Shown piece after piece: positions 3,894 through 22,261 of a DNA stretch of 32,000 nucleotides. A program made the translations under genes and the position numbers. The notes beneath the pieces were generated by a model that searched no databases, was not told the DNA's origin, and saw nothing but the letters and a program-made list of their open reading frames with translations. The stretch is from assembly GCA_965224465.1 (NCBI GenBank), contig OZ245049.1, forward strand, positions 2,460,001-2,492,000. The letters run 5' to 3'. Positions within the stretch are counted from its first letter, which is position 1, and every line of letters starts with the position of its first letter. Source of the stretch: Flavobacteriaceae bacterium. Its GTDB lineage: Bacteria; Bacteroidota; Bacteroidia; Flavobacteriales; Flavobacteriaceae.

Positions 3894-5429
3894 ATGAAAA
3901 TTAAAAAATATTTCGCATACCTAGGACTGGCTTCTATAGCTGTCCTAAGCATCGTATCTTGTGAAAAAGAAATAGATAATATTGGAGTAGATTTGATCAA
4001 CAATAAAAAATTCACGACTCAAAGCATCACTTCAAACATTCAATCTAAGACACTAGATATTGAAAGCGTAAAAGCTACAGGAGTTGGACAATACTTACTT
4101 GGAATCTATAAGGACTCAGAAATGGGAAGCCTTAAAGCATCTATCATTGCCCAACTAAGTGTTTCTAGTACTGGAAGTAAATATACCTACGGGACTAATA
4201 TGATTATTGATGAAGTGATTATTGACCTCCCTTACCAAGCAACAAGGTCTAGTAAGAATTATAAGGATGGAAAACCAAAGTACAGCATTGATTCTGTTTT
4301 TGGAAATACAACTCAATCATTCAAAATAAACGTTTATGAACTGGGGACTTATTTGAACAAATTAGACCCAGAACACCCAGAAAAAAAAGCGACGTATTTG
4401 AGCAATAAAACATATGCAAAAGGAACTAGTTTATATGGTGAAAGTTTTAAAATAAACGCAAACGACACTGTTGCGTATGTAAAAAGACATCGATTGGATG
4501 GATCTGTATATGACACAGACACCATAAAAACAAGTAAGGTTACGCCTTCTATTAAATTAAAACTGGACAAATCTGAAATTAAAAAGATTTTTGTTGACAA
4601 CACTAACGGAATTGATTTTAGTTCTTTAGAATCTTTTAGAAAAGGATTCCGAGGATTATATATAGAACCAGAAGCTGAGAACGCCAATCAAACACATTTG
4701 ATATCATTGCTTTTAAATGCTGCCAATATGAAAATTTACTATTCGAATGATGTTGTAAAGGATGAAGGCGCAAAAGAAGACTTAAATGGAAATGGGGTAA
4801 AAGGAGAAAAAGGCGTAACTGTGAGAACAAAACAAACATTTACATTCTCTTTTACAGGGATAAAAACAAACAAGCTTGAGCATGACTATGCCGTCTCAAA
4901 ATCTAGCGGAAACGACCGAATTTACCTCCAAGGAGCAGCTGGAACCGAATCCGTAATTGAATTGTTTATTGACGAAGATACCAAAAAATTAAGAGCTGAA
5001 AACCTATTGATAACAGAAGCTTCACTTATCTTACACATAGATCAAAACGCAGACACTGATTTAATTCCAAAACAGTTGTTTATTTATGACTATTCTAAAA
5101 ACGAACATATTAGAGATATTTTCACAGAAGGAATCTCTGTAGTTGGCGGAACATTGATGAAAGATAGCAAAGGAAAATCCTTGCACAAATACAAATTTAG
5201 TATCACTGATTATATTGCAGATATATTAACTTCTGATAAAGATTTTGAAAGCTTAAAGCTAGGTCTTAGAGTATACAATGGTCCTTCAGAAATGCCTGCA
5301 AACGCTAACGATATTGCTATAAAAAATCAAAGTTGGACTCCAAAAGGAGTGGTTCTATACAATGAATCAGAAACCAACGGAGATAAAAAATTAAAACTAG
5401 ACATTTACTACTCTAAATTAAATAAGTAG
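3894..5429 (+). CDS. Lipoprotein, DUF4270-like
   Basis: 511 aa. The signal peptide has the lipobox LSIVSC. Its position after the glycogen-synthase-like gene and before glmS is conserved. The family assignment is from memory of this synteny. Confidence 0.5.
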   Translation: MKIKKYFAYLGLASIAVLSIVSCEKEIDNIGVDLINNKKFTTQSITSNIQSKTLDIESVKATGVGQYLLGIYKDSEMGSLKASIIAQLSVSSTGSKYTYGTNMIIDEVIIDLPYQATRSSKNYKDGKPKYSIDSVFGNTTQSFKINVYELGTYLNKLDPEHPEKKATYLSNKTYAKGTSLYGESFKINANDTVAYVKRHRLDGSVYDTDTIKTSKVTPSIKLKLDKSEIKKIFVDNTNGIDFSSLESFRKGFRGLYIEPEAENANQTHLISLLLNAANMKIYYSNDVVKDEGAKEDLNGNGVKGEKGVTVRTKQTFTFSFTGIKTNKLEHDYAVSKSSGNDRIYLQGAAGTESVIELFIDEDTKKLRAENLLITEASLILHIDQNADTDLIPKQLFIYDYSKNEHIRDIFTEGISVVGGTLMKDSKGKSLHKYKFSITDYIADILTSDKDFESLKLGLRVYNGPSEMPANANDIAIKNQSWTPKGVVLYNESETNGDKKLKLDIYYSKLNK

Positions 5430-5454
5430 TAATTAACTATAAAAACACAATGCT

Positions 5455-7302
5455 ATGTGTGGAATTACTGGATATATAGGGTTTAGGCAAGCCTACCCTA
5501 TAGTTATAAAAGGATTACAACGTCTCGAATACCGTGGGTATGACAGTGCAGGAGTTATCACATACGATGCAAATGTACACGTGACAAAAACAAAAGGAAA
5601 AGTAAGTGACCTTATGGAGGTTGCCAAAAACGCAAACACCAATGGTACCTTAGGTTTTGGACATACACGATGGGCTACCCATGGTGTTCCAAACGACATC
5701 AATTCTCATCCACACGTATCTAACTCTGGAAACATAGTTATTGTACACAATGGAATTATTGAAAATTACGACAGTATTAAGCAAGAACTTAGTACTCGTG
5801 GCTATACTTTTCAAAGTGATACAGATACGGAAGTACTCGTAAATTTAATCGAAGACACCAAAAAACAAAACAACTGTTTATTGGGGCAGGCCGTTCAAAT
5901 TGCATTAACCAATGTAATAGGCGCTTATGCCATTGCTGTATTTGACAAGGAAAAACCAGACGAAATAATTATTGCTCGTTTAGGAAGTCCTATTGCTATT
6001 GGTATTGGAGAGAACAACAAAGAATTCTTTTTCGCCTCAGATGCTTCACCTTTTGTTGAATACACAAAAAACGTGATTTATTTAGACGATGAAGAACTTG
6101 CCATTTTAAAAGTAGGTCGTGAAATCAAAATACGCAAAATAAATGATGACAGCCCCGTAACTCCATACATTCAAGAACTTCAATTAAACTTAGAAGAAAT
6201 TGAAAAGGGAGGTTATGAACATTTCATGCTCAAAGAAATTCACGAGCAACCAGACGCCATACGAGATACCTTAAGAGGTAGATTGTTAGCAGATGAAGGA
6301 CTTATAAAAATGGGAAGTGTAGACGATCATTTGGACAAATTTACCAATGCAAACCGCATAATTATTGTGGCATGTGGTACCTCTTGGCATGCAGGACTCG
6401 TAGCTGAATATCTCTTTGAAGATTTTGCTCGCGTCCCTGTAGAAGTAGAATACGCCTCTGAATTTAGATACAGAAATCCTATTATTACTCGCAATGATAT
6501 TGTAATTGCCATTTCTCAATCTGGAGAAACAGCAGACACATTAGCCGCTATTAAATTAGCAAAATCAAAAGGAGCATTTGTATTTGGAGTCTGTAATGTA
6601 GTAGGTTCGTCTATTGCTAGAGAAACCGATTCTGGCGCGTACACACACGCTGGCCCTGAGATAGGAGTCGCATCTACCAAAGCCTTTACTACCCAAATGA
6701 CTGTGCTAGCATTGATGGCATTGAAAGTAGGGAAAGCAAAAGGAAACCTGTCACGTTCTATGTATCATTCTTACCTACAAGAATTAAGCTTAATCCCATC
6801 TAAGGTAGCAGAATTATTAAAGCAAAACGACATTATTAAAGAAATAGCTGCCATCTACAAAGACTCGCCTAATTGCTTGTATTTAGGACGTGGTTATAAT
6901 TTCCCAGTAGCCCTTGAAGGCGCTTTGAAATTGAAGGAAATTTCTTATATCCATGCAGAAGGATATCCCGCTGCAGAGATGAAACATGGACCTATTGCTT
7001 TGATTGATGAAAACATGCCTGTGGTAGTAATTGCTACACGTAAAGGACATTATGAAAAAGTAGTAAGCAATATCCAAGAAATAAAATCTAGAGAAGGAAA
7101 AATAATTGCCATTGTTACCAAAGGTGATACTACTGTAAAAGCAATTGCGGATCATGTTATTGAAATCCCAGAAACAGAAGAAGCTTTTACTCCATTTTTA
7201 ACAACAATTCCATTGCAGTTATTGTCTTACCACATTGCAGTAATGAGAGGTTGTAATGTAGATCAACCACGTAACTTAGCAAAATCCGTGACTGTAGAAT
7301 AA
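5455..7302 (+). CDS. glmS: Glutamine--fructose-6-phosphate aminotransferase (isomerizing)
   Basis: 615 aa starting MCGITGY (N-terminal nucleophile Cys), with two SIS domains (GTSWHA, SQSGETADT) and the C-terminal KSVTVE. Confidence 0.97.
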   Translation: MCGITGYIGFRQAYPIVIKGLQRLEYRGYDSAGVITYDANVHVTKTKGKVSDLMEVAKNANTNGTLGFGHTRWATHGVPNDINSHPHVSNSGNIVIVHNGIIENYDSIKQELSTRGYTFQSDTDTEVLVNLIEDTKKQNNCLLGQAVQIALTNVIGAYAIAVFDKEKPDEIIIARLGSPIAIGIGENNKEFFFASDASPFVEYTKNVIYLDDEELAILKVGREIKIRKINDDSPVTPYIQELQLNLEEIEKGGYEHFMLKEIHEQPDAIRDTLRGRLLADEGLIKMGSVDDHLDKFTNANRIIIVACGTSWHAGLVAEYLFEDFARVPVEVEYASEFRYRNPIITRNDIVIAISQSGETADTLAAIKLAKSKGAFVFGVCNVVGSSIARETDSGAYTHAGPEIGVASTKAFTTQMTVLALMALKVGKAKGNLSRSMYHSYLQELSLIPSKVAELLKQNDIIKEIAAIYKDSPNCLYLGRGYNFPVALEGALKLKEISYIHAEGYPAAEMKHGPIALIDENMPVVVIATRKGHYEKVVSNIQEIKSREGKIIAIVTKGDTTVKAIADHVIEIPETEEAFTPFLTTIPLQLLSYHIAVMRGCNVDQPRNLAKSVTVE

Positions 7303-9306: not shown

Positions 9307-10818
9307 ATGACGATCAGACACTCAAACCAACGATTAATCTATTTATTATCACCCTTATTTTTATTCATAAACTGCGAAAAAGACGAACTCATATTTGAGC
9401 ACAAACTAACAACCACTATAAGTCCAAAAGAAGGAGGAACAGTAACACCTTCTTCGGGAACTTACGAGGCAGATAACACGATAACACTTAAAGCAACTCC
9501 CTCTAAACATTATACTTTTAAGAACTGGAGTGGCAGTGCATCTGGTTCTAAAAATTCCATTTCAATAACACTAAACACAAACAAAAATATTGATGTAATC
9601 TTTGTAAAAAAAGACACTGATAACGATGGTGTCACAGATGATATTGATACATGCCCAAACACTCCCCCTGGAGAAGAGGTAACCAAGTATGGCTGTGCTA
9701 CTTCACAAACAGACACAGACAAAGATGGTGTTATGGACTCGCTAGACAGATGCCCAAACACACCAGAAAAAGAAAAGGCAAACAGCAAAGGATGTTCTAG
9801 TTCACAACTAGATTCTGACGGAGACGGAGTCGCAGACAACATTGATGATTGTCCAAATACCACAAAAGGCATCCCTGTAGATAAAAACGGTTGTACTAGT
9901 AAACAAAAAATACATATACCTGACGTTAATTTTGAGAAAAGGCTAATCGCTTTAGGCTATGACGATGTTTTGGACAACTATGTGTTTTACAAGAACATTA
10001 AAGAGGTATTGTATTTAGATGTATCCGGATTAAATATTAGCAATTTAACAGGCATAGAAGCCTTTGAAAACTTGACAATTTTAAACTGTAAGAAAAACAA
10101 ACTTACCCAACTAAATCTAACTAAAAACATAGCCCTAAAAGAATTATACACACGCAAAAATCAACTCAAAAACCTAAACATAAGTAACAACTCTGAGTTA
10201 GTAAAACTATACTGTTCCAATAATAAATTAGCAAAATTGGATGTAAGTAGCAATACAAAATTGACTCAAATAATGTGTAACAATAACCGATTAACACGCT
10301 TACATTTAAGAAGTAACACAGAATTAAAAGAGTTAATATGTGATTCTAACAAACTCCCCAGTTTAGATTTGAGTAACTGTAATAAATTGGTACGGATTTG
10401 GTGTGGATTTAACCAACTCGAACAATTAAACATACGTAAAAACACACAGCTACGGTATTTAATTTGCGCTAACAATAAAATTACAAGTTTGGATGTAAAA
10501 AGCAATCTTCAATTGTCTGAATTTGCTTGTGGAAACAACCTAATTACCGATCTGAACCTCGTCAACAATACACTCTTATCAGAATTTGCATGTGGACAAA
10601 ATCGAATTAAAAAGTTAGACATACGTAACAACAAACAGTTAAAGCAATTAAGTTGCGGTAAAAACCAACTCACTCGTTTAGATTTAAGTAAGAATCGTCG
10701 ATTAACAGACTTGTTTTGTTCTTACAATAAATTATTTTGTATAAAAGTGGCTCCAAACCACAATTACAGTTCATGGATTAAAGATACTGAGACTATATTT
10801 TCTCTGAATTGTAATTAA
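9307..10818 (+). CDS. Surface lipoprotein with an InlB-B-repeat-like domain, three thrombospondin type-3 Ca-binding repeats and about 11 leucine-rich repeats
   Basis: The lipobox is LFINC. GGTVTPSSGTYEADNTITLKATPSKHYTFKNWSG resembles a Listeria-Bacteroides repeat. DTDNDGVTDDIDTCPNTP, DTDKDGVMDSLDRCPNTP and DSDGDGVADNIDDCPNTT are TSP3 repeats. About 11 units of 21 aa follow the pattern LxxLxCxxNxLxxLDLxxNxx. Confidence 0.8.
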   Translation: MTIRHSNQRLIYLLSPLFLFINCEKDELIFEHKLTTTISPKEGGTVTPSSGTYEADNTITLKATPSKHYTFKNWSGSASGSKNSISITLNTNKNIDVIFVKKDTDNDGVTDDIDTCPNTPPGEEVTKYGCATSQTDTDKDGVMDSLDRCPNTPEKEKANSKGCSSSQLDSDGDGVADNIDDCPNTTKGIPVDKNGCTSKQKIHIPDVNFEKRLIALGYDDVLDNYVFYKNIKEVLYLDVSGLNISNLTGIEAFENLTILNCKKNKLTQLNLTKNIALKELYTRKNQLKNLNISNNSELVKLYCSNNKLAKLDVSSNTKLTQIMCNNNRLTRLHLRSNTELKELICDSNKLPSLDLSNCNKLVRIWCGFNQLEQLNIRKNTQLRYLICANNKITSLDVKSNLQLSEFACGNNLITDLNLVNNTLLSEFACGQNRIKKLDIRNNKQLKQLSCGKNQLTRLDLSKNRRLTDLFCSYNKLFCIKVAPNHNYSSWIKDTETIFSLNCN

Positions 10819-11424: not shown

Positions 11425-11907
11425 ATGCCAGAAAGATCCGTAGCAACAGTAGGCAGCATGCATGTGTGTCCAATGTGTTCAGGAACTGTTCCTCATGTAG
11501 GAGGGACTATTATTCAAGGAGAGAGCAATGTTTTAGTAAATGGTAATCCCGTTGCAACTATGGGGAGTATATGTACTTGTATAGGTGCTATCGGCACAGT
11601 TATACAAGGTTCGCCCACTGTTTTTGTTAATGGTAAGCCTATTGCTTGTGTTGGTGATATGACCCAGCACGGAGGGATAATTACCTCAGGCTCTCCGAAT
11701 GTTTTTATAGGTAGCTCGCCGGAAACCCCTACAAAAACAAATAACCTTCAAGAGATAGCGTTTCCTGAAATCTCCTTAGTTAATAGGATACAAGCAGTGG
11801 TTACAGGTAATAATGATGCATTAAAAGAAGCAGCACAGAATATGGAGAAAATAAAAAATGAGGCTGATAAAAATGGTTTTTTAAACGCTATAGATTTTAG
11901 TTTTTAA
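11425..11907 (+). CDS. PAAR domain protein (spike-tip protein of a contractile injection system) with a C-terminal extension of about 60 aa
   Basis: The sequence VGSMHVCPMCSGTVPHVGGTIIQGESNVLVNGNPVATMGSICTC...GSPTVFVNGKPIACVGDMTQHGGIITSGSPNVFIG shows three PAAR-type repeats with the classic GDxxxHGGxIxxGSxxVxI ending. The stop codon is 2 nt before the next start. Confidence 0.85.
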   Translation: MPERSVATVGSMHVCPMCSGTVPHVGGTIIQGESNVLVNGNPVATMGSICTCIGAIGTVIQGSPTVFVNGKPIACVGDMTQHGGIITSGSPNVFIGSSPETPTKTNNLQEIAFPEISLVNRIQAVVTGNNDALKEAAQNMEKIKNEADKNGFLNAIDFSF

Positions 11908-11909
11908 CG

Positions 11910-14900
11910 ATGAAAGAAATTACACATCCTGAAAAAGGAAAAAAGGTAGGCGCTAAAGTTAGTTCTACAATTTTCGGCACATACCCAATAGGAAAATTTA
12001 ACACTTGGCACGGAGGCACACACTTAGAGAGTATGTCTGAATTAGTAGCCATTGCAGACGGTAGAATAATAGCCTATCAAATTACAGACAATTACGAATC
12101 CGTAGCTTTTGAAGGGAAAGACCAAGTGTATTCAAAATGCTTTGTACTAATACAGCACGACTACGTAATTAAAAAGACAGAGGACGATACTAAAGAAGGT
12201 AAACCTATTCGGTTTTATTCTTTTTATCAACATCTAATGCCTTTATCTAAAATAAAAAAAACAAATAAATTCCCTTACTTTTTCTGTGATAAAAAGCACG
12301 TTATCAAAGCTAAAGAACAGGTAAAGGGTGCTAAAATGTACAGGTTTATAAAGGGTAAAAAAACCGAAAAAACATTTATCCCTAATGGCACAACCATTAA
12401 GTTAAACAAAACGGATAAAGTCACAAAAAATAAACATTCCTATACTAGAGTAACTTCTGTTGATGGTATTGCTCTTACAAATAAACACTATATAAGTGAA
12501 AGTTTTATTGGTACAGATCTCATTAAAAAATATAGTTATGTACGTACAGAATATTATACAGACCCTAATAATGATACCAAAGGAGGGCGTATTCGTGAAA
12601 AGGCAAGTGGTACATCTAAAATTGTAAATCTAATCCCCTACGGAAAAGTGGTTGCTATAGATATGTCTACAAAAGATAAATCTTGGATAAAATTAGCCGA
12701 TGGTAGCGGGTATACTTTCAAAAAAAGTTTAGAATATAAAAGTGTATTAAATAATAAAAAAATCACAAAAGATAAAGTTATAGGTTGTGATATCCCTGTA
12801 AAAGCAAACCAAACCATTGGACATGCAGGAAAAAACGGCACTTTAGGATTCGAAAATTACAGAAACTGTCATTTTGAAATTTTTACGGATGCAAGTGATA
12901 GCGACCTAAAATATTTTATAAATAATAAAGCAAAAAACAGTTTTAAAACGCCTCGCTTTTTTGAAATAGAAAACGGAGCTAAGTTAAAAGCTAATATTGT
13001 TAAATCGCTTGATATCAGCGCTAATACCCCTATAAAAGTACTCAAGGTAAAAGATTGTTCGATAAAAGTAGAAATAATTGAAATTATGGCTACCATTGCG
13101 TATTCTGATGTAATTGATAATAATGACAAAGCGAGTAGTTACAACCTAAAAGCGGATACTTTTGACACGGTTAATACCGCTTTTAATAATACATTAAAAG
13201 TAACAGATAAACTCTATTATATAGAGCGTTGCGATGAAAGCGGTAAAAAAATATCTAATAAAGAAAACGACCAACGTATAAAGGATAAACTTGCCCAATA
13301 CAGAAATGTAAAGTTTAACCCTAAACATATAAAACAACTATTTTGGGTAAAGGAAACCGATATTGACGTATGTACAGCCGGTGAAAAAGGGAAAATTACA
13401 ACTGCTTTAACCCAAGTGTATATTTATGAGCCTAAAGATGAAACCGAAGATTTAACCATAAACGAAGCATTGCTTATAGAAAATAAAGGATTAAAAACCT
13501 ATACCAATAAAAGCACTAAAGAAAAATGGTATGCTATTACATGTAGCTATATAGAAAACAATAAATTGGTTAGTAAAAAAGGATGGATAAGTGAAAATAA
13601 CAGTAAGTTTACTGCAAAAAACCCACATAATTGGAAAGAGTTTGGTTTTGAAATTATAGATGCAGGAAAAGATTATGTATATGAGGTAGAAGGCTATAAT
13701 AGAGCAGAAAACAGTGGTGATTTTATTAACAAAATGTGGGAATTAATAGATACCGACGGCAACAAACGTATTAATAGAGTGGAGATAATTAATGCATTTT
13801 CAGATAGTAAAAAACTAAATAAAATAGCTAAATTTATCTGCAAGCACAAGAGTGAATGGTCGTACACTATTGATAAAATAAAAGAAGAAGCCGAGCAGTT
13901 TTATAAAATAGGAATAGACGAAGCTACAGGTATAAAAAAAGATAAATTAACCGAAAAAAAAGATAAACTTATTGATGTGTTTGTATCTAAATTAGAAAAT
14001 TTATTGTGTTGGAAAGAGATACAAAATGCCAACTATACACCACCTGTAATAAAACAGAAAACGAAAACAAAAGATACGTTTAGGTTTTTCCCTAAAGATT
14101 TTCAAGAAATTATTGATGATAAAGAACCGCAAAATTTATTTATAGAAGAAATGATGCAAATTATGGATGAAAAGAAGAAAGAAGAAGAAAAACCAAAACG
14201 TGTAGTGCCTAAAGGTGATGTGTTTCATTATTTTCATCCTATTGCTTTTTTACAGCATATGAAGTTGATTACTGCAACAAATGTTATTTATATTTATTCT
14301 GATGGCACAATTAGTAAATTAGATTTAAAAGGGCTTAACGAAATAACTTATGTCTATGTAAGTTCTAATGGTAAAGAATATAAAATTTGCACTTGTGAAT
14401 TATTAGAAATTGATGAAAGGTTAAAAGGAGTTGCACATGATCAAGCAACAGCTCATGCTGTTAAATCAGGATATGATGCTGGTAATATTGTGAGTTACTC
14501 TCATGCTTCCTCACGTAAAAAATATACATATCCCGATGGGACTATAAGAACTTACGGGAAATATGATGGAGAATTTAGACGAGTTGTTTATAATAAAGGA
14601 GCAAGAAAAACACACATAGTTAAACTTCCTAATGGATTAAATACAAAAGTAAATAATAAATCTGTGAAATTTGCATTTACATCAACAGCAAGAACATATT
14701 GTGGGCCTGAACATTTTGCTTGTTTTATAGGAGCTTTAACAGAAGTAGGTTATGCTGATATTGTTTCAGGAGGAATGTGTGAAGAGGACGGAACATGCTT
14801 TCCTAGTATATCGCACAATAATGGTCAGAGTGTTGATACTAGTTATTTAGATGATGATATTAGAGAACAAAACTTTATAAATGCTATGAATAAATTTGGA

Positions 14901-15011
14901 TTTGATGGTCAGCTTAGAGGTTATGCAAAGAAGAAATTTGATCATACGACTGCTAAATCTCATCACAATTCGCACCTGCATTCAGGGGTGTTAAAACCAA
15001 AATATAAATAG
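11910..15011 (+). CDS. Large polymorphic effector: split LytM/M23-like domain with an SH3b-like insertion, an unknown central region with an EF-hand-like loop, a K/E-rich linker, and a C-terminal LAS-type (HxxGxxxD...HxH) putative peptidoglycan peptidase toxin domain
   Basis: 1033 aa with no signal peptide. The M23-like blocks are WHGGTHLE, VAIADGRIIAY, FYSFYQHL and, about 190 aa later, VKANQTIGHAGKNG and NCHFEIF. GGRIREKASGTSKIVNLIPYGKVVAIDMSTKDKSWIKLADGSGY is SH3b-like. DTDGNKRINRVE is an EF-hand-like loop (13749-13784). The linker is DEKKKEEEKPKR. The C-terminal motifs are SHNNGQSVD (14811-14837) and HLH (14973-14981). Confidence 0.7.
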   Translation: MKEITHPEKGKKVGAKVSSTIFGTYPIGKFNTWHGGTHLESMSELVAIADGRIIAYQITDNYESVAFEGKDQVYSKCFVLIQHDYVIKKTEDDTKEGKPIRFYSFYQHLMPLSKIKKTNKFPYFFCDKKHVIKAKEQVKGAKMYRFIKGKKTEKTFIPNGTTIKLNKTDKVTKNKHSYTRVTSVDGIALTNKHYISESFIGTDLIKKYSYVRTEYYTDPNNDTKGGRIREKASGTSKIVNLIPYGKVVAIDMSTKDKSWIKLADGSGYTFKKSLEYKSVLNNKKITKDKVIGCDIPVKANQTIGHAGKNGTLGFENYRNCHFEIFTDASDSDLKYFINNKAKNSFKTPRFFEIENGAKLKANIVKSLDISANTPIKVLKVKDCSIKVEIIEIMATIAYSDVIDNNDKASSYNLKADTFDTVNTAFNNTLKVTDKLYYIERCDESGKKISNKENDQRIKDKLAQYRNVKFNPKHIKQLFWVKETDIDVCTAGEKGKITTALTQVYIYEPKDETEDLTINEALLIENKGLKTYTNKSTKEKWYAITCSYIENNKLVSKKGWISENNSKFTAKNPHNWKEFGFEIIDAGKDYVYEVEGYNRAENSGDFINKMWELIDTDGNKRINRVEIINAFSDSKKLNKIAKFICKHKSEWSYTIDKIKEEAEQFYKIGIDEATGIKKDKLTEKKDKLIDVFVSKLENLLCWKEIQNANYTPPVIKQKTKTKDTFRFFPKDFQEIIDDKEPQNLFIEEMMQIMDEKKKEEEKPKRVVPKGDVFHYFHPIAFLQHMKLITATNVIYIYSDGTISKLDLKGLNEITYVYVSSNGKEYKICTCELLEIDERLKGVAHDQATAHAVKSGYDAGNIVSYSHASSRKKYTYPDGTIRTYGKYDGEFRRVVYNKGARKTHIVKLPNGLNTKVNNKSVKFAFTSTARTYCGPEHFACFIGALTEVGYADIVSGGMCEEDGTCFPSISHNNGQSVDTSYLDDDIREQNFINAMNKFGFDGQLRGYAKKKFDHTTAKSHHNSHLHSGVLKPKYK

Positions 15012-15013
15012 AA

Positions 15014-15763
15014 ATGTATAAATTAATACAAATATTTTTTGCACTAGGGTTATTGACTAGTTGTCTTGATTCTAAAAATCACAAAGAAAAATTAAAAGAT
15101 AATAATTTAGCAGAAATAAAAGTAGAATTAACAGATAGCACCTCGTTAAGAGTAAAACAATTATCTAATTTCAACTTAAGTCAGTTATCATTAGGAAATG
15201 ATAAGATTACTGATAAAGAGTTTAGAGGCAAAAATAGTTTTTACATTAAAAAAGGAACAGATGTAGAATTAAATAATGAATTTATTTACTCTTCAAAAGG
15301 TGAAATTTTAAAAGATTATTTTCATAACTTTTATAAACCGACAGCTTTATCATCAGTTGAAGAAGATAAATATCCTTTATATGATGATAAAGATTATATT
15401 CAAAAAGTAGGTATTAAATCTTCAGGACTAGAAAATATTATAAAAAATAAAGATGGAGTATACTTATGTGTGTTTTTTGTAAATTTTAATTATGATAAAG
15501 AATATGAGTCTTTTATTAAACCTATCAGGTATTTAGTTTCTTTTGATGAAAATTTAAATATTTTGAATGAATTCACTCTTAGTTTTTTTTATGAAACAGA
15601 AACAAAGAGTTTCATAAAATTATTTTATTTAGATGAAAACTTAAATATTTACACTAATTATTACAGGAACAAAGAGGATAAAGACGGAAATATAAAGGAG
15701 ACCTTTTCAGACTTATATAGGTATACCGTATTGTCTAATGGTACAATTTCAGAGAAGAAATAA
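15014..15763 (+). CDS. Lipoprotein, candidate cognate immunity protein for the 1033-aa effector
   Basis: 249 aa with the lipobox LLTSC. It starts 2 nt after the effector stop. There is no recognisable enzymatic motif. Confidence 0.55.
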   Translation: MYKLIQIFFALGLLTSCLDSKNHKEKLKDNNLAEIKVELTDSTSLRVKQLSNFNLSQLSLGNDKITDKEFRGKNSFYIKKGTDVELNNEFIYSSKGEILKDYFHNFYKPTALSSVEEDKYPLYDDKDYIQKVGIKSSGLENIIKNKDGVYLCVFFVNFNYDKEYESFIKPIRYLVSFDENLNILNEFTLSFFYETETKSFIKLFYLDENLNIYTNYYRNKEDKDGNIKETFSDLYRYTVLSNGTISEKK

Positions 15764-16331
15764 ACCTTACGATTATACACTTCATGAGCATAGAGCTCCA
15801 ACTTTTGGGTATAGAAGAGGCACACCTAGTATAAGGCTACATGCTGCAAGAGATTTATATTATGATGCTGAAGAACCAATTTATGCAATAGCAGATGGTA
15901 CTACAAAAAGAGTTTATGAATTTTATCTCGACACTTATGCTATTGAAGTTGAACATAATTACGAGCACGTCAAAGGACATAAATTGTATGTCCGTTATGG
16001 AGAAGTAAGTAAGAATAATATTTTAGTAAAAGTCGGAGAAGAAGTAAAACAAGGAGACCAAATAGCCGAAATAGGTTTATTATATAGTAAGAAAAAAGAT
16101 AAGTATATTATTCAACCATACCCTGATAAAAGAGGCATGTTGCATTTAGAAATGTACACAGGTGAAGCAAAAGGAAAATTAACTGACAAAACAGTAAAGT
16201 ATACAGATATGCTTTATGCAAAATCAGACAAATACCACAAAGGACGTTCTTTTCAAAGGCGAAAAGATTTATTTGACCCATTACCTTTGTTAAAAATTAT
16301 GTATAACAATTCTAAATCTGATTTTAAATGA
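15738..16331 (+). CDS. Small M23/LytM-like protein without a signal peptide (candidate second effector)
   Basis: 197 aa. LHAARDLY (HxxxD), IYAIADGTT, YAIEVEH, VKVGEEVKQGDQIAEIG and MLHLEMY follow M23 block order. It overlaps the upstream ORF by 26 nt and the downstream ORF by 4 nt (ATGA). Confidence 0.6.
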   Translation: MVQFQRRNKPYDYTLHEHRAPTFGYRRGTPSIRLHAARDLYYDAEEPIYAIADGTTKRVYEFYLDTYAIEVEHNYEHVKGHKLYVRYGEVSKNNILVKVGEEVKQGDQIAEIGLLYSKKKDKYIIQPYPDKRGMLHLEMYTGEAKGKLTDKTVKYTDMLYAKSDKYHKGRSFQRRKDLFDPLPLLKIMYNNSKSDFK

Positions 16332-16891
16332 GAAATATAAAATATTTTTTAGTACTAGTAGTATCCCTTTTTTTTAGTTTGAATTCTTGTATAGAGAAAA
16401 AAACTAATGTTTCTAAATTAACAAATGATACAAAGGCTAATAAAACACCCAAAAAGGAAATAGTAAAGAAAAATAATCCTTTTAAATATATATACAATGT
16501 AGATTTGGTAGGAATGGAAGCTTCTGAAAAAATTAAAGACACTAAGCCTTATGAAAAATATTCTGTTGACTTTACAGCTGCTTGCTATTCTAGTAATCTA
16601 TTGAAAATAAGAATAAACAATGAGATTGTATCAATCTCAAACTATAACGATTCGAGAATTGAACAATCATTTCATATTAGTGATACAAAAATCCAAAATG
16701 ATAGTTTAATAATTGAATCAAATTCTCCAAATTATTTTAAAATAATAATTGTAAAAGTAAAAAATGCTCAGGTTTACTCTTTAGAGTATAAAGGTAATTT
16801 AGAAATAGATGTAAAAATGAGTAAATTTATTTCAAGAGAAACTGACCTTTTTAAATTTGGAGGTATCGATTGTGATGATTTTGGAGGATAA
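16328..16891 (+). CDS. Lipoprotein, candidate immunity protein for the small M23-like protein
   Basis: 187 aa with the lipobox SLNSC. Its start overlaps the stop of the M23-like gene. Confidence 0.5.
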   Translation: MRNIKYFLVLVVSLFFSLNSCIEKKTNVSKLTNDTKANKTPKKEIVKKNNPFKYIYNVDLVGMEASEKIKDTKPYEKYSVDFTAACYSSNLLKIRINNEIVSISNYNDSRIEQSFHISDTKIQNDSLIIESNSPNYFKIIIVKVKNAQVYSLEYKGNLEIDVKMSKFISRETDLFKFGGIDCDDFGG

Positions 16892-16899
16892 GAGCTAGA

Positions 16900-17518
16900 T
16901 TGTGAACAAGATAAAAAAGTAAAGCCACAGTTTAAAAAGCTGTGATATTATGGTTTGTAAATTAAATTTGTTTTTATGAATAACGCTCAATTAAGTAAAT
17001 TATTTAATCCCGATGTTACGGTCTTACTGGACAGGGTAAAAGTGACTGATAAAGATATTAATGTGCATTTACTTTATGCATTGTGTAATGCTGTTAAATG
17101 TTCAATTTCAATAGAAGAGTTTAACCCTTCTATTTATATTGAAGATGTTAATAATCAAATTGCATTTAACAATCAACTAAACATAGAGGCTCCAGAAAGT
17201 ATTAAAGCATCTTTTATAACTACATTTAGGGTAGATTTTATCTATGATGATAATTTAAACAATCATGTATACTGTTTTTTTAAAACGCAACCTTATATCA
17301 CCAATAACGATTGCCCTGTTGAAATCGTTAATTTCAATAAATCCTTATTAGAATTAACACCAAACGATTGCTTACGGTATGTAAATAGTAAATTAAAAGA
17401 ACTCTATCCTAACTTATGGGACGATACATTAAACATTTCTATAAATATAACATTGCATCACTACCAAGCAGCAAAAAACAAGTGGAAAATAATAACACCA
17501 ATATCTGATTAAAAATAA
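16900..17518 (+). repeat. 619-bp direct repeat, copy 1 (contains the 178-aa ORF and 76 bp of its upstream region)
   Basis: Aligns base for base with 21398-22016 at a constant offset of 4498 nt. Only a few substitutions are visible. Confidence 0.9.
16976..17512 (+). CDS. Hypothetical cytoplasmic 178-aa protein, copy 1 of the repeated gene
   Basis: Intact ORF with no signal peptide and no motif I recognise. The paralog at 21474-22010 differs at 4 of 178 residues. Confidence 0.6.
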   Translation: MNNAQLSKLFNPDVTVLLDRVKVTDKDINVHLLYALCNAVKCSISIEEFNPSIYIEDVNNQIAFNNQLNIEAPESIKASFITTFRVDFIYDDNLNNHVYCFFKTQPYITNNDCPVEIVNFNKSLLELTPNDCLRYVNSKLKELYPNLWDDTLNISINITLHHYQAAKNKWKIITPISD

Positions 17519-17532
17519 TATTAAGAAGTATT

Positions 17533-17666
17533 TCAACAAATTATATAGGAAAGCTTTAGATATATACTTTAATAAAAAGGGTATACGAACAAGGAAGACC
17601 TATGGTGTTGAAAAACACATTCAAATGTGGACTTCTAAATAGTCGGATTTATTAGTTGAATTTAAG
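17533..17666 (+). repeat. 134-bp junction repeat, copy 1
   Basis: The stretch TCAACAAATTATATAG...TTATTAGTTGAATTTAAG recurs at 18754-18888 with scattered substitutions and one 1-nt indel. Confidence 0.85.
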
Positions 17667-17746
17667 CATGTCTAAATTCTATGATTTTAAAATATACACT
17701 AAAGACATACCTCAAAGTAAAAGATCTAACTCTTAATAAAGATAAA

Positions 17747-18643
17747 ATGAAACCTTATTATTTAATTATATTAATTTTCTGTTCATGTAAAGAAAAGTCA
17801 GAAAATAAAATTAACGAAAGTCATACAATAATAACTACTCTAGAGGTGCATGAAGAAACCTCTTCTATAGTGATTCCTAAAAGATCTCAAGAAAAAATTG
17901 GTTTAATAAATGATACTGATGGTTATACGAACGCACGTAAAGAACCTTCATCATCTTCTGAAATTTTATTTAAAATATTAGAAGATGAATATTTTATGTA
18001 TACTTCTATAAAAGAATCAAATTGGTCTGAAATACAAACTCTTGATAATAAGGTCGCTTATGTACATAATAGTAGAATAAAAAAAGTAAATCCAAATAAT
18101 GTGATTACTTTTTTTAGTGAATATTATGATGAGGATGAAGAAAAAGACAAGCTTATAAAAAATATTATAACAATAAAATCACTGGATGAATCAAAAGCTT
18201 TTTCTATAAAGGAATTTCCATATTCTAAATTAAAGATTGTTAGTATATCCAATGATACTCTAATTTTATTAAGTGATGACAAAAAAATATCTATTGAAGT
18301 TATAGCAGGTCTTTTTGAAAAAGAGAAGCATTCAATTGAATACAATGAAAATAATTACGTCAACAAAATTGATTCGAAAAATATTTATGGAAATGACCAA
18401 GTACCAGTTAGAGAAATTAAGCAAATAATAATTCAGAAGGATGACATTAAATTTGAGTTAGACACAAAAGTTTTTAGTAATTTATATGAACCAAATTTTG
18501 AACATCTTAATGTTTATATAAAAGGAAATAATCAATTAATTATGTCTATGACAAATGGACATGGAGCAATAAATTCTTATAAATCAATTTTAATATTTGA
18601 TAATTCAAATCTATTAAAACACATAACCTATATTCCTTTTTAA
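17747..18643 (+). CDS. Lipoprotein with an SH3-like N-terminal domain (start taken at the internal ATG that gives a lipoprotein signal peptide)
   Basis: MKPYYLIILIFCSCKEK provides the lipobox. GLINDTDGYTNARKEPSSSSEILFKILEDEYF...WSEIQTLDNKVAYVHNSRI is SH3b-like. The track ORF starts at 17681, but 17747 gives a canonical signal peptide. Confidence 0.55.
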   Translation: MKPYYLIILIFCSCKEKSENKINESHTIITTLEVHEETSSIVIPKRSQEKIGLINDTDGYTNARKEPSSSSEILFKILEDEYFMYTSIKESNWSEIQTLDNKVAYVHNSRIKKVNPNNVITFFSEYYDEDEEKDKLIKNIITIKSLDESKAFSIKEFPYSKLKIVSISNDTLILLSDDKKISIEVIAGLFEKEKHSIEYNENNYVNKIDSKNIYGNDQVPVREIKQIIIQKDDIKFELDTKVFSNLYEPNFEHLNVYIKGNNQLIMSMTNGHGAINSYKSILIFDNSNLLKHITYIPF

Positions 18644-18753
18644 GTTTAGTATGGAATCCAATGTTATTGAAAAAGTTATACATACTGTTTAAAAAAAACG
18701 CATCCTTATAATACCAATATCCAATTAAAAACAATTTAAATAACGATAGCATG

Positions 18754-18888
18754 TCAACAAATTATATAGCAAATCTTTAGATATACACTTTAACAAAAAT
18801 AGTATACGAACAAGGCAAACCTATGGTATTGAAAAAAGACATTCAAATGTTGACTTCTAAATAGTCGCATTTATTAGTTGAATTTAAG
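18754..18888 (+). repeat. 134-bp junction repeat, copy 2
   Basis: Homologous to 17533-17666. It lies immediately upstream of the orphan toxin module. Confidence 0.85.
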
Positions 18889-18932
18889 ATGGGAAATATG
18901 GAAGAAAAGAAGAAGAAAAACCAAAACGCGTA

Positions 18933-19808
18933 GTGCCTAAAGGTGATGTGTTTCATTATTTTCATCCTATTGCTTTTTTACAGCATATGAAGTTGATTAC
19001 TGTAACAAATGTTATTTATATTTATTCTGATGGGACAATTAGCAAATTAGATTTAAAAGGGCTTAGCGAAATAACTTATGTCTATGTAAGTTCTAATGGT
19101 AAAGAATATAAAATTTGCACTTGTGAATTATTAGAAATTGATGAAAGGTTAAAAGGAGTTGCACATGGGCAAAAAATAGCTCATACCATCGAGTCAGGTT
19201 ATGATTCTAGTAATATTGTTACTTATGCACATGCTTCTTCTCGAAAAAAATATACTTATCCAGATGGCACTATAAGAACATATGGTCCTTACGATGGAGG
19301 TTTCAGAAGAGTTGTTTATAAAAAAGGCGCAGAAAAAAAACGAATTATTAAAATGCCTAAAAAAATTGGTGTTAAAATTGATAATAATAAAGTAATTGCA
19401 TTTAAGTTTACAGGCACAGCAAGAACTTATTGTGACCCAGAAGTTTTCGCTGGATTTATAGGTGTCTTAGGTGAAACAGGATATCCATCTACAGATATAA
19501 TATCGACAGGTATGTGTGAAGAAGACGGAACATGCTTTCCTAGTATTACCCACAATAATGGGCAAAGTATAGATATTAAATACCTTAAGAAAAATGGTGG
19601 TATAACAAGTTACATGTACAATAAGGATTTTGATAAAGTTAGAATGCAAAAAATTGTTGATGGATTTGTTAAATTTAATTTTAAATATTTAGCGGCATGG
19701 AAAGATTCTGAAGGTAAGCTGATGACTAATACAAAGAAAGTATCTCATCACCATCATCATTTTCATGCAGGTAATTTAAATAAAACAAAAATAAGAAGAA
19801 ATGATTAA
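18933..19808 (+). CDS. Orphan C-terminal toxin module, paralog of effector residues 766-1033, with no ATG start (probably silent unless recombined)
   Basis: The first 235 nt are nearly identical to 14205-14439. After that the module diverges but keeps THNNGQSID and HHHHHFH (the HxxGxxxD and HxH motifs). The frame opens only after a TAA at 18885-18887. It has no in-frame ATG, and the first possible start is the GTG at 18933. Confidence 0.7.
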   Translation: MPKGDVFHYFHPIAFLQHMKLITVTNVIYIYSDGTISKLDLKGLSEITYVYVSSNGKEYKICTCELLEIDERLKGVAHGQKIAHTIESGYDSSNIVTYAHASSRKKYTYPDGTIRTYGPYDGGFRRVVYKKGAEKKRIIKMPKKIGVKIDNNKVIAFKFTGTARTYCDPEVFAGFIGVLGETGYPSTDIISTGMCEEDGTCFPSITHNNGQSIDIKYLKKNGGITSYMYNKDFDKVRMQKIVDGFVKFNFKYLAAWKDSEGKLMTNTKKVSHHHHHFHAGNLNKTKIRRND

Positions 19809-20475
19809 AATAATATTTAAATTTTTGATAGTGTTTTTTTTGATAAGTTCATGTAAGACGAAAAAAGAGGAACTTAAAAAATCAGCTCAAATTTCATCTA
19901 ATAATTACGAAAAAGATAAAGTACCTTATTTAAAACTTCCAATAGATTATTCTTTTGAAAGAAACAAAAAAAATATTAAAGGAGATGTATTTTATAATCA
20001 ACGAGTAAAAATAAACACAAAAATAAATAATAATTTCAGTTTTATTAGTGAAAAGAATAATCTAAATATTGAAAATGAAATATGTAAAAAGTATAAAGAA
20101 AAATGCAATTCATATTTTACAGAATTTGATTATTCTAAAACGTACAAAATTCAAAATGATTTTGATTTTGATCTTTATTTAATTACTTCCAAATTCAGTT
20201 ATTACTTAAATTTAATATCAATTAAAGACGATAAAGTCATAGATTTATTGAATGTTTATTTAAATTACGTTGATTATGAAGGTCAAGAATGTATCTATCG
20301 AAACTTCTCTGTTGACAAGGATCTTAATGTTTCTATTTTTAATTATATCTATTTTGAATCTACAGGAGAAGTTGAAGAAGACAATAATGAAGCTGATTCC
20401 ATAAACATATATCCACCTGCTACTTTAAAACAAGAATTGTATACATTAACAAAAGAAGGATTATTCAGCAGATGA
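19801..20475 (+). CDS. Lipoprotein, candidate immunity protein for the orphan toxin module
   Basis: 224 aa with the lipobox LISSC. Its start overlaps the orphan toxin stop by 8 nt. Confidence 0.55.
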   Translation: MIKIIFKFLIVFFLISSCKTKKEELKKSAQISSNNYEKDKVPYLKLPIDYSFERNKKNIKGDVFYNQRVKINTKINNNFSFISEKNNLNIENEICKKYKEKCNSYFTEFDYSKTYKIQNDFDFDLYLITSKFSYYLNLISIKDDKVIDLLNVYLNYVDYEGQECIYRNFSVDKDLNVSIFNYIYFESTGEVEEDNNEADSINIYPPATLKQELYTLTKEGLFSR

Positions 20476-21369: not shown

Positions 21370-21397
21370 TCACCTCCAGCTGTCGCAATCGTCTCGC

Positions 21398-22016
21398 TTG
21401 TGAACAAGATAAAAAAGTAAAGCCACAGTTTAAAAAGCTGTGATATTATGGTTTGTAAATTAAATTTGTTTTTATGAATAACGCTCAATTAAGTAAATTA
21501 TTTAATCCCGATGTTACGGTCTTACTGGACAGGGTAAAAGTGACTGATAAAGATATTAATGTGCATTTACTTTATGCATTGTGTAATGCTGTTAAATGTT
21601 CAATTTCAATAGAAGAGTTTAACCCTTCTATTTATATTGAAGATGTTAATAATCAAATTGCATTTAACAATCAACTAAACATAGAGGCTCCAGAAAGTAT
21701 AAAAGCATCTTTTACAACTACATTTAGGGTAGATTTTATCTATGATGATAATTTAAACAATCATGTATACTGTTTTTTTAAAACGCAACCTTATAACACC
21801 AATAACGATTGCCCTGTTGAAATCGTTAATTTTAATAAATCCTTATTAGAATTAACACCAAACGATTGCTTACGGTATGTAAATAGTAAATTAAAAGAAC
21901 TCTATCCTAGCTTATGGGACGATACATTAAATATTTCTATAAATATAACATTGCATCACTACCAAGCAGCAAAAAACAAGTGGAAAATAATAACACCAAT
22001 GTCTGATTAAAAATAA
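21398..22016 (+). repeat. 619-bp direct repeat, copy 2
   Basis: Matches 16900-17518 at a constant offset of 4498 nt. Confidence 0.9.
21474..22010 (+). CDS. Hypothetical cytoplasmic 178-aa protein, copy 2 of the repeated gene
   Basis: Intact ORF. It differs from copy 1 by I81T, I108N, N146S and I176M. Confidence 0.6.
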   Translation: MNNAQLSKLFNPDVTVLLDRVKVTDKDINVHLLYALCNAVKCSISIEEFNPSIYIEDVNNQIAFNNQLNIEAPESIKASFTTTFRVDFIYDDNLNNHVYCFFKTQPYNTNNDCPVEIVNFNKSLLELTPNDCLRYVNSKLKELYPSLWDDTLNISINITLHHYQAAKNKWKIITPMSD

Positions 22017-22134
22017 GCTAAATTCAATAGTAACCTCCCGCTGTCGCAAGCGTCTCGCTTGAGAACAAGATAAAGAAACGAAGCCTCAGTTTAAAAAGCT
22101 GTGATATTATGGTTTGTAAATTAAATTTGGCTTT

Positions 22135-22245
22135 ATGAATAACACTCAATTAAGTAAATTATTTAATCCCGATGTTACGGTATTACTGGACAAGGTAAAA
22201 GTGTCTGATAAAGACATCAATGTGCATTTACTTTATAGGTTATAG
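22135..22245 (+). pseudogene. Truncated third copy of the repeated 178-aa gene (36 codons)
   Basis: MNNTQLSKLFNPDVTVLLDKVKVSDKDINVHLLY is followed by RL and a stop. Homology to copies 1 and 2 starts in the upstream region near 22021 and ends abruptly at 22236, 26 nt from the next gene. Confidence 0.8.
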
Positions 22246-22261
22246 GACTATAATAACACTA

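Follow-up and report, generated by a model that had tools for sequence, protein, structure and literature searches.

A probable WHIX-class type VI secretion effector with a polymorphic C-terminus in a Flavobacteriaceae bacterium

The effector gene and the WHIX family

The window analyzed here is the whole stretch of 32 kb taken from contig OZ245049.1 (assembly GCA_965224465.1) of a Flavobacteriaceae bacterium, and its list of open reading frames (ORFs) holds a single ORF at 11910..15011 that encodes 1033 amino acids. This gene, the genes on either side of it and the orphan cassettes described below all lie on the forward strand. Its ATG is separated by 2 nucleotides (nt) from the stop codon of a gene for a 160-residue PAAR spike-tip protein with a C-terminal tail of ~65 residues (11425..11907; Pfam PF05488, E 2e-29), which bears out the PAAR association stated in an earlier, sequence-only reading of this DNA. 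A gene for a 249-residue lipoprotein (15014..15763) starts 3 nt past the effector stop; the protein begins MYKLIQIFFALGLLTSC, has a lipobox in its sequence and found no match in Pfam and NCBIfam scans. Judged by its position, it is likely to be the periplasmic immunity protein. The 1033-residue protein between them appears to consist of a WHIX domain followed by a C-terminal toxin domain, and we consider it probable, with good confidence, that it is a polymorphic type VI secretion system (T6SS) cargo protein, of the WHIX/TseP class, in a Bacteroidota host of low G+C content. The assignment to the WHIX-class polymorphic effectors is one made by homology.

The effector is built from an ordered series of segments. 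WHIX region 1 (residues 20-117; 11967..12260) corresponds to the N-terminal half of an M23/LytM-like core, with the blocks NTWHGGTH, AIADGRIIAY, LIQHDY and FYSFYQHL; it contains the WHxxxH signature W33-H34-G-G-T-H38 (12006..12023), in which H38 stands where the M23 motif HxxxD has its Asp. It is followed by Insert A (residues 118-291; 12261..12782), which comprises two beta modules, the second of them SH3b-like (residues 225-273; nt 12582-12728), and then by WHIX region 2a (residues 292-345; 12783..12944), the C-terminal half of the core, running from CDIPVKANQTIGHAG to NCHFEIF. Insert B (residues 346-570; 12945..13619) is beta-rich with predicted SH3b-like modules, and is modeled by AlphaFold2 (AF2) with a predicted local distance difference test score (pLDDT) of 81-93. 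The helical WHIX region 2b (residues 571-706; 13620..14027) holds an EF-hand-like loop, D614-E625 with the sequence DTDGNKRINRVE (nt 13749-13784), which AF2 renders as a helix-loop-helix, and the motif CKHKSEW (residues 644-650; nt 13839-13859). A K/E-rich low-complexity linker of low pLDDT (28-40; residues 707-765; 14028..14204), which varies in length among homologues and includes the stretch EEMMQIMDEKKKEEEKPKR at about residues 745-765, precedes the junction motif VPKGDVFHYFHPIAFLQHMK (residues 766-785; 14205..14264) and the C-terminal toxin domain (residues 786-1033; 14265..15008).

The sequence-only reading had located much of this correctly. It had seen HGGTH where a peptidase of the M23 family would have HxxxD (residues 34-38; nt 12009-12023), NCHFE where it would have HxH (residues 319-323; nt 12864-12878, with H321 at nt 12870-12872), and an insertion of about 190 residues between the two blocks, for which YQHL at residues 106-109 and IGHAG at 303-307 leave 193. 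The EF-hand-like loop at residues 614-625 and the K/E-rich linker ahead of the C-terminal domain, ending near residue 765, are likewise where it had placed them. Its interpretation fared less well. The altered HxxxH, the lost first His and the long insertion had been listed as three oddities; they are shared features of WHIX and TseP proteins, as is the EF-hand-like loop. The oddities that it noted are the very traits by which a family published in 2025 is defined, and its central puzzle was therefore already explained.

That family is defined by WHIX, a T6SS secretion domain named for its conserved WHxxxH motif (Fridman et al., PLoS Biol 2025, PMC12135965). Experiments have shown its role to be secretion through the T6SS and the loading of proteins onto the spike. 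The domain is bipartite (residues 31-126 and 271-476 in a Vibrio alginolyticus effector), is mostly N-terminal and is fused to polymorphic, chiefly peptidoglycan-targeting C-termini, and its genes are flanked by genes for proteins with signal peptides (PMC12135965). By homology, residues 1-785 of the effector are a WHIX domain, because they combine the WHxxxH motif with the bipartite layout and with direct homology to a published WHIX protein. No variation of the motif occurs in 17 Bacteroidota homologues or in five proteobacterial relatives, all five of which carry it as WHGGxH. Eleven core residues (W33, H34, G35, G36, H38, G51, A55, Y103, Y106, H108 and G307) are invariant across the Bacteroidota and their proteobacterial relatives, and the N-terminal blocks are therefore more than a chance resemblance. 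The gap between the WHIX regions ranges from about 30 residues in a Paraburkholderia protein to more than 400 in the homologue P0008.

Direct homology comes from WP_013577834.1 of Rahnella aceris, which is present in the sequence file and the tree of the WHIX study (supplementary files 10 and 28 of PMC12135965) and whose gene follows TssH and VgrG genes. It matches region 1 of the effector at E 4e-14 by BLASTP, and the hidden Markov model (HMM) of the 785-residue domain at a full-sequence E of 4e-33 through five blocks in collinear order, namely WHGGIH, the core, its C-terminal half (YQSHIECF), the EF-hand with KHPSEW, and the end motif LYHMHPITFLDNFK. A Photobacterium protein encoded behind Hcp and VgrG matches region 1 at E 2e-16. 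Region 2a has collinear HMM matches in the Rahnella, Escherichia coli and Photobacterium proteins, and region 2b aligns with residues 621-668 of the Rahnella protein and 334-429 of the Paraburkholderia protein. When residues 1-345 were searched by tblastn against plasmids and chromids, 113 records were obtained with E values down to 1e-10, nearly all from Proteobacteria and from the orders published for WHIX, with genera including Burkholderia, Escherichia, Pantoea, Enterobacter, Vibrio, Photobacterium and Rahnella; the single best match was on a Capnocytophaga plasmid. A scan across GTDB with two motifs of the family returned 32 loci, 30 of them in Flavobacteriaceae or Cytophagales and the other two short partial matches in a Tissierellia metagenome-assembled genome.

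Published WHIX proteins such as V. alginolyticus WP_005373349.1 and Aeromonas jandaei Awe1 share with the effector the N-terminal position of WHxxxH, the bipartite domain with a variable insert, the end motif YH[FM]HPI[AT]F, the subclass I layout, polymorphic C-termini, signal-peptide neighbors and nearby spike genes, at about 22-27% identity over long alignments and up to 37% in the N-terminal block. The junction is the last conserved element of the WHIX domain, in agreement with its pLDDT of 81-89. The differences concern the host, which is a member of the Bacteroidota, whereas the text of PMC12135965 and the supplements covered here name proteobacterial orders only; the length of the domain, about 785 residues with extra SH3b-like modules in both gaps compared with about 480-550 in published WHIX domains; and the gene order, since the related Bacteroidota loci, unlike the published ones, have a PAAR gene between VgrG and the effector.

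Models and HMM comparisons indicate that both WHIX gaps of the Bacteroidota lineage (residues 118-291 and 346-570) hold SH3b-like modules that are additional to the proteobacterial domain. Insert A is modeled by AF2 as beta strands and is almost missing from the Paraburkholderia homologue. For Insert B, columns 349-569 of the 785-residue HMM found no match (E <= 0.1) in the Rahnella, E. coli, Photobacterium and Paraburkholderia proteins; a Gilliamella protein (P0048) was not resolved by block in this comparison. The SH3b-like module that the sequence-only reading had placed in the first insertion is supported by homologues and by the structure model, in that SH3_3 exceeds the gathering score at the equivalent position of P0010 and Foldseek of the 785-residue AF2 model returned SH3b-like domains only, with match probabilities of 0.85-1.0 in PDB and BFVD; in the effector itself the match (residues 225-273) stays under the gathering score, with Pfam E values of 0.0035-0.05. 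A further SH3_3 match lies at the position of P0014 equivalent to Insert B, and such matches are above or near the cut-off in P0010, P0014 and P0022. The central region of about 400 residues, once called unassignable, is thus made up of the second WHIX region and of extra SH3b-like modules that interrupt it, as the AF2 model and the collinear HMM blocks indicate. The EF-hand is also below the Pfam gathering score in the effector (E 0.008-0.05, whole protein and segments). Scans of the 1033 residues and of four segments against Pfam and NCBIfam gave only the sub-threshold EF-hand, SH3_3 and M23 matches, and PDB sequence searches with the whole protein and with the Bacteroidota core profile gave nothing significant.

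The WHIX core, LytM/M23 peptidases and TseP

At the level of profiles, the WHIX core is related to LytM/M23 peptidases, yet it is not a member of the M23 family. The sequence-only reading had described the N-terminus as M23-like; the relationship stands, and family membership does not. With hhalign, the spliced Bacteroidota core matched a profile of M23 toxin domains at a probability of 95.7% (E 8e-9), and a core profile spanning both phyla matched it at 96.6% (E 7e-10). The M23 profile was made from bona fide M23 toxin domains and itself matches LytM and lysostaphin in PDB at 1e-9. Splicing of the core is justified because the natural Paraburkholderia homologue has only about 30 residues between the halves, and this essentially unsplit relative matches the spliced core from one end to the other (99.5%, E 2e-22). 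Without splicing, the halves are collinear on the M23 profile, residues 32-115 on columns 21-83 (E 1.5e-4) and residues 295-327 on columns 87-126 (E 1.5e-6). In this register H34 corresponds to the M23 His and H38 to the Asp of HxxxD, and H321 to the second His of HxH. The order of blocks in LytM, lysostaphin, EnvC and NlpD is the same as in the effector: Hxxx[D/H], an ADG-V strand, an xxH block, YxHL, a GxxIGxxG turn and xxHxE. The core differs from these proteins in the change of Asp to His in HxxxD, the loss of the first His of HxH, its division by 174 residues and its embedding in a larger secretion domain. Searched against PDB, the cross-phylum core profile gave seven matches, six of them M23/LytM, none individually significant and the best at E 0.066. 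AF2 modeled residues 1-785 with a pLDDT of 76.7, and of 75-94 in the core.

Several results weigh against membership of the M23 family. Pfam PF01551 has no match in the whole effector, and its E value is 0.51 for residues 1-363; after removal of the insert it reaches 8e-4, in the C-terminal half of the profile, at 19.9 bits against a cut-off of 28.7 bits. Neither signature motif is intact: HxxxD reads HGGTH, with His invariant at the Asp position throughout the family, and HxH reads N-C-H, with His at the first position in 0 of 13 family members and in none of the five proteobacterial relatives. The second His is retained in 10 of the 13 members, and in the other three H321 is replaced by Gln. 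Foldseek of the 785-residue model listed no M23 protein among its top 50 PDB or BFVD matches, a test weakened by the multidomain query and the split core. Of the two kinds of search that the sequence-only reading had put forward as a check, profile comparison hence gives M23/LytM and the Foldseek top 50 do not. The Pfam M23 matches in homologues were rejected as proof of an N-terminal M23 domain, since all of them lie in C-terminal toxins. Pfam scans of the proteobacterial WHIX relatives gave no M23 match either, including the protein annotated as an M23 family metallopeptidase. That record, at 3926-6220 of locus L007 on a Paraburkholderia largidicola chromid, describes a WHIX-type protein with an unsplit core, in which Pfam finds no M23 domain at E <= 0.1.

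The PDB entry 3SLU is an M23 peptidase. TseP of Aeromonas dhakensis, whose N-domain has been superposed on this structure, is a chimeric effector, and that N-domain is a Zn-dependent amidase that cleaves between N-acetylmuramic acid (NAM) and L-Ala (Wang et al., eLife 2025, PMC11893102). The WHIX study cites TseP among the WHIX-containing effectors (reference 68 of PMC12135965). The residues reported as important in TseP-N are H19, H23, H109, H339, H359 and E539, and mutants in H19, H23, H109 and H339 lost amidase activity (PMC11893102). Set side by side from the published residue numbers, H19/H23 (an HxxxH), H109 and H339 of TseP plausibly match H34/H38, H108 and H321 of the effector. By this analogy the effector core may keep a zinc site (H34, H38 and H321, with H108 nearby) and a TseP-like amidase activity. 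The two proteins are both chimeric, with a predicted EF-hand, which in TseP could be mutated without effect (PMC11893102); like TseP, the effector would be spike-carried and would have a C-terminal wall hydrolase. The TseP N-domain is also structural in the T6SS. They differ in the C-domain, which is a lysozyme in TseP and a LAS-like domain here, and in the presumed partner, since TseP binds VgrG2 directly and the effector would likely bind the PAAR tail. The claim that two wall-hydrolase-like modules on one such protein are unusual does not hold, given that TseP-type chimeras and WHIX "double-blade" effectors were already described in 2025.

Two readings of the core's activity have to be considered. 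In the first, the protein would be a dual enzyme, with the N-terminal core an active zinc peptidoglycan hydrolase, an amidase with a three-His site (H34/H38/H321), beside the C-terminal toxin. Conservation speaks for it (across two phyla there is no variation at H34, H38 and H108, and at least 90% conservation at H83 and H321), as do the SH3b-like wall-binding modules inside the N-domain and the published Zn-dependent amidase activity of TseP-N, AHA_1849-N and PSPTO_5204-N, together with the inactivity of the TseP His mutants (PMC11893102). Against it, the first His of HxH is lacking family-wide and H321 gives way to Gln in the three members already mentioned, only one candidate immunity gene adjoins the effector, and the WHIX domain of Awe1 is non-toxic in the periplasm (PMC12135965). 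The TseP H339A mutant, in which amidase activity is abolished, retains T6SS assembly and killing (PMC11893102), so that catalysis is dispensable for the conserved role. The Awe1 result and the Gln at position 321 also count against the effector reading as a whole, and they make an enzymatic role of the N-domain uncertain. We regard the dual-enzyme reading as tentative, a prospect of perhaps one chance in a few, and it is compatible with the WHIX assignment as an added activity.

The second reading, to which we give a little more credence while still holding it short of even, is that the core is catalytically dead in the manner of EnvC and NlpD, that its groove only grips the tail of the spike, and that all toxicity is C-terminal. 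Both M23 signature motifs are changed, and the LytM domain of EnvC, although not significant, is the sole PDB match of one core profile (A2) and recurs among the matches of another (A12). It has been put forward that the deep cavity of WHIX caps VgrG (VgrG4) at its C-terminal tail, and WHIX by itself is enough for secretion (PMC12135965). The amidase activity published for the three TseP-family N-domains is at odds with such a dead core, and four strictly conserved histidines exceed what a binding groove would seem to need.

The C-terminal toxin domain and the orphan cassettes

A search of 5.8 billion proteins retrieved 15 relatives of the effector, whose sources are Aquimarina, Cellulophaga, Cytophagales and metagenomes. 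Their identity to it is 27-37% over residues 1 to about 785, behind which the divergence is complete, and the C-termini of homologues include lysozyme (PF00959), CHAP (PF05257), canonical M23 and C39-like domains. The divergence sets in behind a junction with the consensus R-x-FP-x4-V-x-HFHPIAF-x3-MK at residues 764-784, in which H774, F775, H776, P777 and M784 are near-invariant. The source genome encodes at least two further WHIX-type paralogues, P0006 and P0022, one of them full-length (1047 residues, with another C-terminus) and one shortened (510 residues).

The locus is a polymorphic toxin locus with orphan cassettes, a feature that the sequence-only reading missed. The first cassette (18880..20475) repeats the end of the linker, the junction and the C-terminal toxin; its 291-residue ORF (18933-19808, with a GTG start at 18933) is 70% identical to the effector C-terminus (BLASTP 1e-130) and is followed by a lipoprotein ORF at 19801-20475. 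Homology at the DNA level begins inside the K/E-rich linker, and upstream the frame is disrupted by an indel of 7 nt. The lipoproteins at 15014..15763 and 19801-20475 are unrelated to each other, and the two toxin copies diverge chiefly past the H-x6-D motif described below. The second cassette (15738..16891) encodes a 197-residue M23-type toxin (15738-16331; Pfam PF01551, E 2e-8) and a lipoprotein (ORF 16328-16891). The M23 ORF begins inside the last part of the putative immunity gene, and it can be aligned with the M23 toxins at the C-termini of P0002 and P0012. This toxin and its C-terminal M23 counterparts in P0002, P0012 and P0014 pass the Pfam threshold; they read YGE[LV] in place of YxHL and MLH in place of HLH, and have therefore lost both canonical catalytic His residues.

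Loci of the Rhs and CdiA type offer a parallel, as in them a conserved junction also bounds a variable C-terminus and displaced, junction-bearing copies lie downstream with new immunity genes. The carrier in our locus is WHIX rather than Rhs/YD repeats or filamentous haemagglutinin, and HFHPIAF takes the place of PxxxxDPxGL or VENN as the junction. Other repeats occur among the cassettes. A segment of ~300-700 nt is duplicated 4.5 kb apart at 99% nucleotide identity (16895-17615 and 21393-22110) and contains a 178-residue ORF (16976-17512 = 21474-22010) with no Pfam match; a third, degraded copy (67%) lies at 22054-22353. An 89-nt direct repeat of 88% identity (17527-17615 and 18748-18836) has one copy after the 178-residue ORF and the other immediately upstream of the orphan toxin cassette; cassette recombination may have left it behind. 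A probable lipoprotein of 320 residues that contains an SH3_3 domain (Pfam E 1e-6) is encoded at 17681-18643, between the two orphan cassettes. The effector and its orphans form an island at about 9.3-22 kb with a G+C content of 0.25-0.31, compared with 0.33-0.38 in flanks that carry glmS, a thrE-like gene, a short-chain dehydrogenase/reductase gene and ATP synthase genes. As this is below the value of the flanking housekeeping genes, it suggests horizontal acquisition of the island. At its edge (9307-10818) is a gene for a probable 503-residue lipoprotein with Asp-rich repeats of the thrombospondin type 3 kind and internalin-like leucine-rich repeats (NCBIfam internalin_J, E 4e-46).

The toxin domain of the effector itself (residues 786-1033) proved to be widespread. 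A word-index search found six relatives only. When 1.84 billion representatives were searched exhaustively with HMMER, 429 matched at E <= 1e-3, of which 257 reached E <= 1e-10. The end of the domain lies no more than 20 residues from the C-terminus in 149 of the 152 proteins that were retrieved. The carriers, all annotated as hypothetical, include fusions to PAAR-like DUF4280 in Myroides, a plasmid-encoded protein of Bernardetia and, in Gilliamella, a protein whose N-region is WHIX-like and contains WHGGIH. The motif of the domain was not found among the supplementary sequences of PMC12135965, as far as that part of the supplement available to us extends.

Across 142 representatives, R928, G941, G955, S966, H969, N971, G972, D976, H1019, H1022 and H1024 are 98-100% conserved; the invariant motif reads R...PSxxHxNGxSxD...HxxHLH. 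P965-S966 and H969-x-N971-G972-x3-D976 are encoded at nt 14802-14837; conservation in this H-x6-D element (S966-I-S-H969-N-N-G972-Q-S-V-D976) is 100% at the S, H, G and D and 98% at N971. Each His of H1019-N-S-H1022-L-H1024 (nt 14964-14981), which lies in the stretch HHNSHLH, is 99-100% conserved, and the element fits a C-terminal HxH ligand motif. The metal-binding motifs that the sequence-only reading ascribed to this domain are thus residues resembling metal ligands that the family conserves. Comparison with LAS zinc peptidases (M15 VanY/LdcB, VanX and MepA of M74) showed that VanY/LdcB and the toxin domain have, in the same order and spacing, an Arg upstream of H-x-N-G-x-[SA]-x-D, then a helix that ends in GF, and a cluster of His residues at the C-terminus. 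In P0039, for example, the VanY domain reads SNHQNGIAFD...YGF...EAWH; this domain was considered as the family domain and rejected because it is a separate domain further upstream. The toxin domain has His in place of the Glu of ExxH and an extra, beta-rich N-terminal part of ~130 residues. Single-sequence comparison with VanY/LdcB gave E values of 0.001-0.01 in the same register.

On these resemblances, the domain is probably a LAS/M15-like zinc peptidase that would cut peptidoglycan peptides. That lipoprotein genes follow both of its copies and that the other C-termini of the family are wall-directed suggests a periplasmic target. It is less likely, though still to be reckoned with, that the domain is not LAS at all, and is some other metal-dependent or a nonenzymatic periplasmic toxin sharing short His/Asp motifs. 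Pfam and NCBIfam have no match at any threshold and a PDB search with a 33-sequence profile was empty, hhalign against a small VanY/LdcB profile placed the motifs in the correct register at a P value of 0.033 and a probability of only 1.6%, and an AF2 model from eight sequences was poor (pLDDT 53), and Foldseek of it gave no meaningful match; these results tell against the LAS assignment. The beta-rich residues ahead of the motifs (about 130, residues 786-920) have no counterpart in VanY. The shared VanY/LdcB register, the near-complete conservation of the motif residues and the fit of the lipoprotein partners and wall-targeting sister C-termini with a periplasmic substrate run counter to this alternative and favor the LAS-like peptidase.

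Spike linkage, delivery and wider meaning

The loci of Aquimarina sp. TRL1 (L001) and Cellulophaga baltica (L002) have the order VgrG, PAAR, effector and small ORF. Together with the adjacent PAAR gene, this order at two homologue loci supports the earlier description of the protein as a spike-associated effector. The C-terminal tail of the PAAR protein (~60-65 residues, about residues 100-160; nt 11725-11907) is conserved in the PAAR proteins of L001 (9528-9989) and L002 (9530-9991), with the consensus ..FPEISLxNR...EKxKxEAxKxGxL....FSF. By its position and by analogy, the tail is a likely candidate for the docking peptide of the WHIX domain.

The 32 kb of the window contain no VgrG gene and no T6SS core gene, and the immunity role and the loading through the PAAR tail are inferences from position and analogy; both points detract from the T6SS interpretation. 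The former also gives some room to the proposal that an extracellular contractile injection system (eCIS) or another phage-tail-like device carries the effector, since VgrG-like and PAAR proteins occur in eCIS too. We regard this as very improbable. More than 98% of the genomes with WHIX homologues contain a T6SS (PMC12135965), the relatives in Rahnella and Photobacterium adjoin TssH, Hcp and TssI genes, and VgrG-PAAR-effector-immunity with a wall toxin and a lipoprotein immunity protein is a standard auxiliary T6SS module.

For a T6SS effector of the WHIX class, the following sequence of events can be proposed. By analogy with Awe1 and TseP, the WHIX domain would load the effector onto the VgrG-PAAR spike, with the conserved C-terminal tail of the PAAR protein encoded 2 nt upstream as the likely contact. 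The effector would then be fired into the periplasm of a neighboring cell, where the target peptidoglycan would be acted on by its SH3b-like modules together with its LAS-like peptidase at the C-terminus, and the downstream lipoprotein would shield kin cells. The orphan cassettes, to judge from the DNA homology, could swap the C-terminus by recombination at the HFHPIAF junction. A broader reading joins these elements: WHIX would be a repurposed LytM/M23 fold, whose deep cavity, once the groove for the substrate, grips the tail of the spike (the PAAR tail ...FSF) as a pseudosubstrate, HFHPIAF would pack onto the core, and the C-terminus would belong to an unnamed LAS-like family of at least 429 clusters in Bacteroidota and Gammaproteobacteria. 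In this full form we consider the reading speculative and rather doubtful.

What is new here is a Bacteroidota clade of WHIX proteins whose loci adjoin PAAR genes and whose domains carry SH3b insertions, explicit evidence from profiles for a LytM-derived WHIX core, and an unannotated, widespread LAS-like toxin domain. For annotation, the succession WHGGxH...YxHL...xxH[FIL]E and then ...HFHPIAF denotes WHIX and not an aberrant M23 peptidase. The widespread toxin domain, which lies outside Pfam and NCBIfam and has residues like those of zinc peptidases, is a target for characterization as a new wall-degrading enzyme. The profile evidence, aided by the unsplit homologue, suggests that the WHIX core descended from the LytM/M23 fold, which joins the view of WHIX as a secretion domain with the view of TseP-N as an amidase. 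The locus also places WHIX-type effectors in the Bacteroidota with PAAR-adjacent genes, where the rules of cargo loading by the T6SS-iii are poorly known. If the broader reading is true, it would extend WHIX loading to the T6SS-iii of the Bacteroidota and would explain in structural terms how a single domain can serve as an amidase in TseP and as a loader in Awe1.

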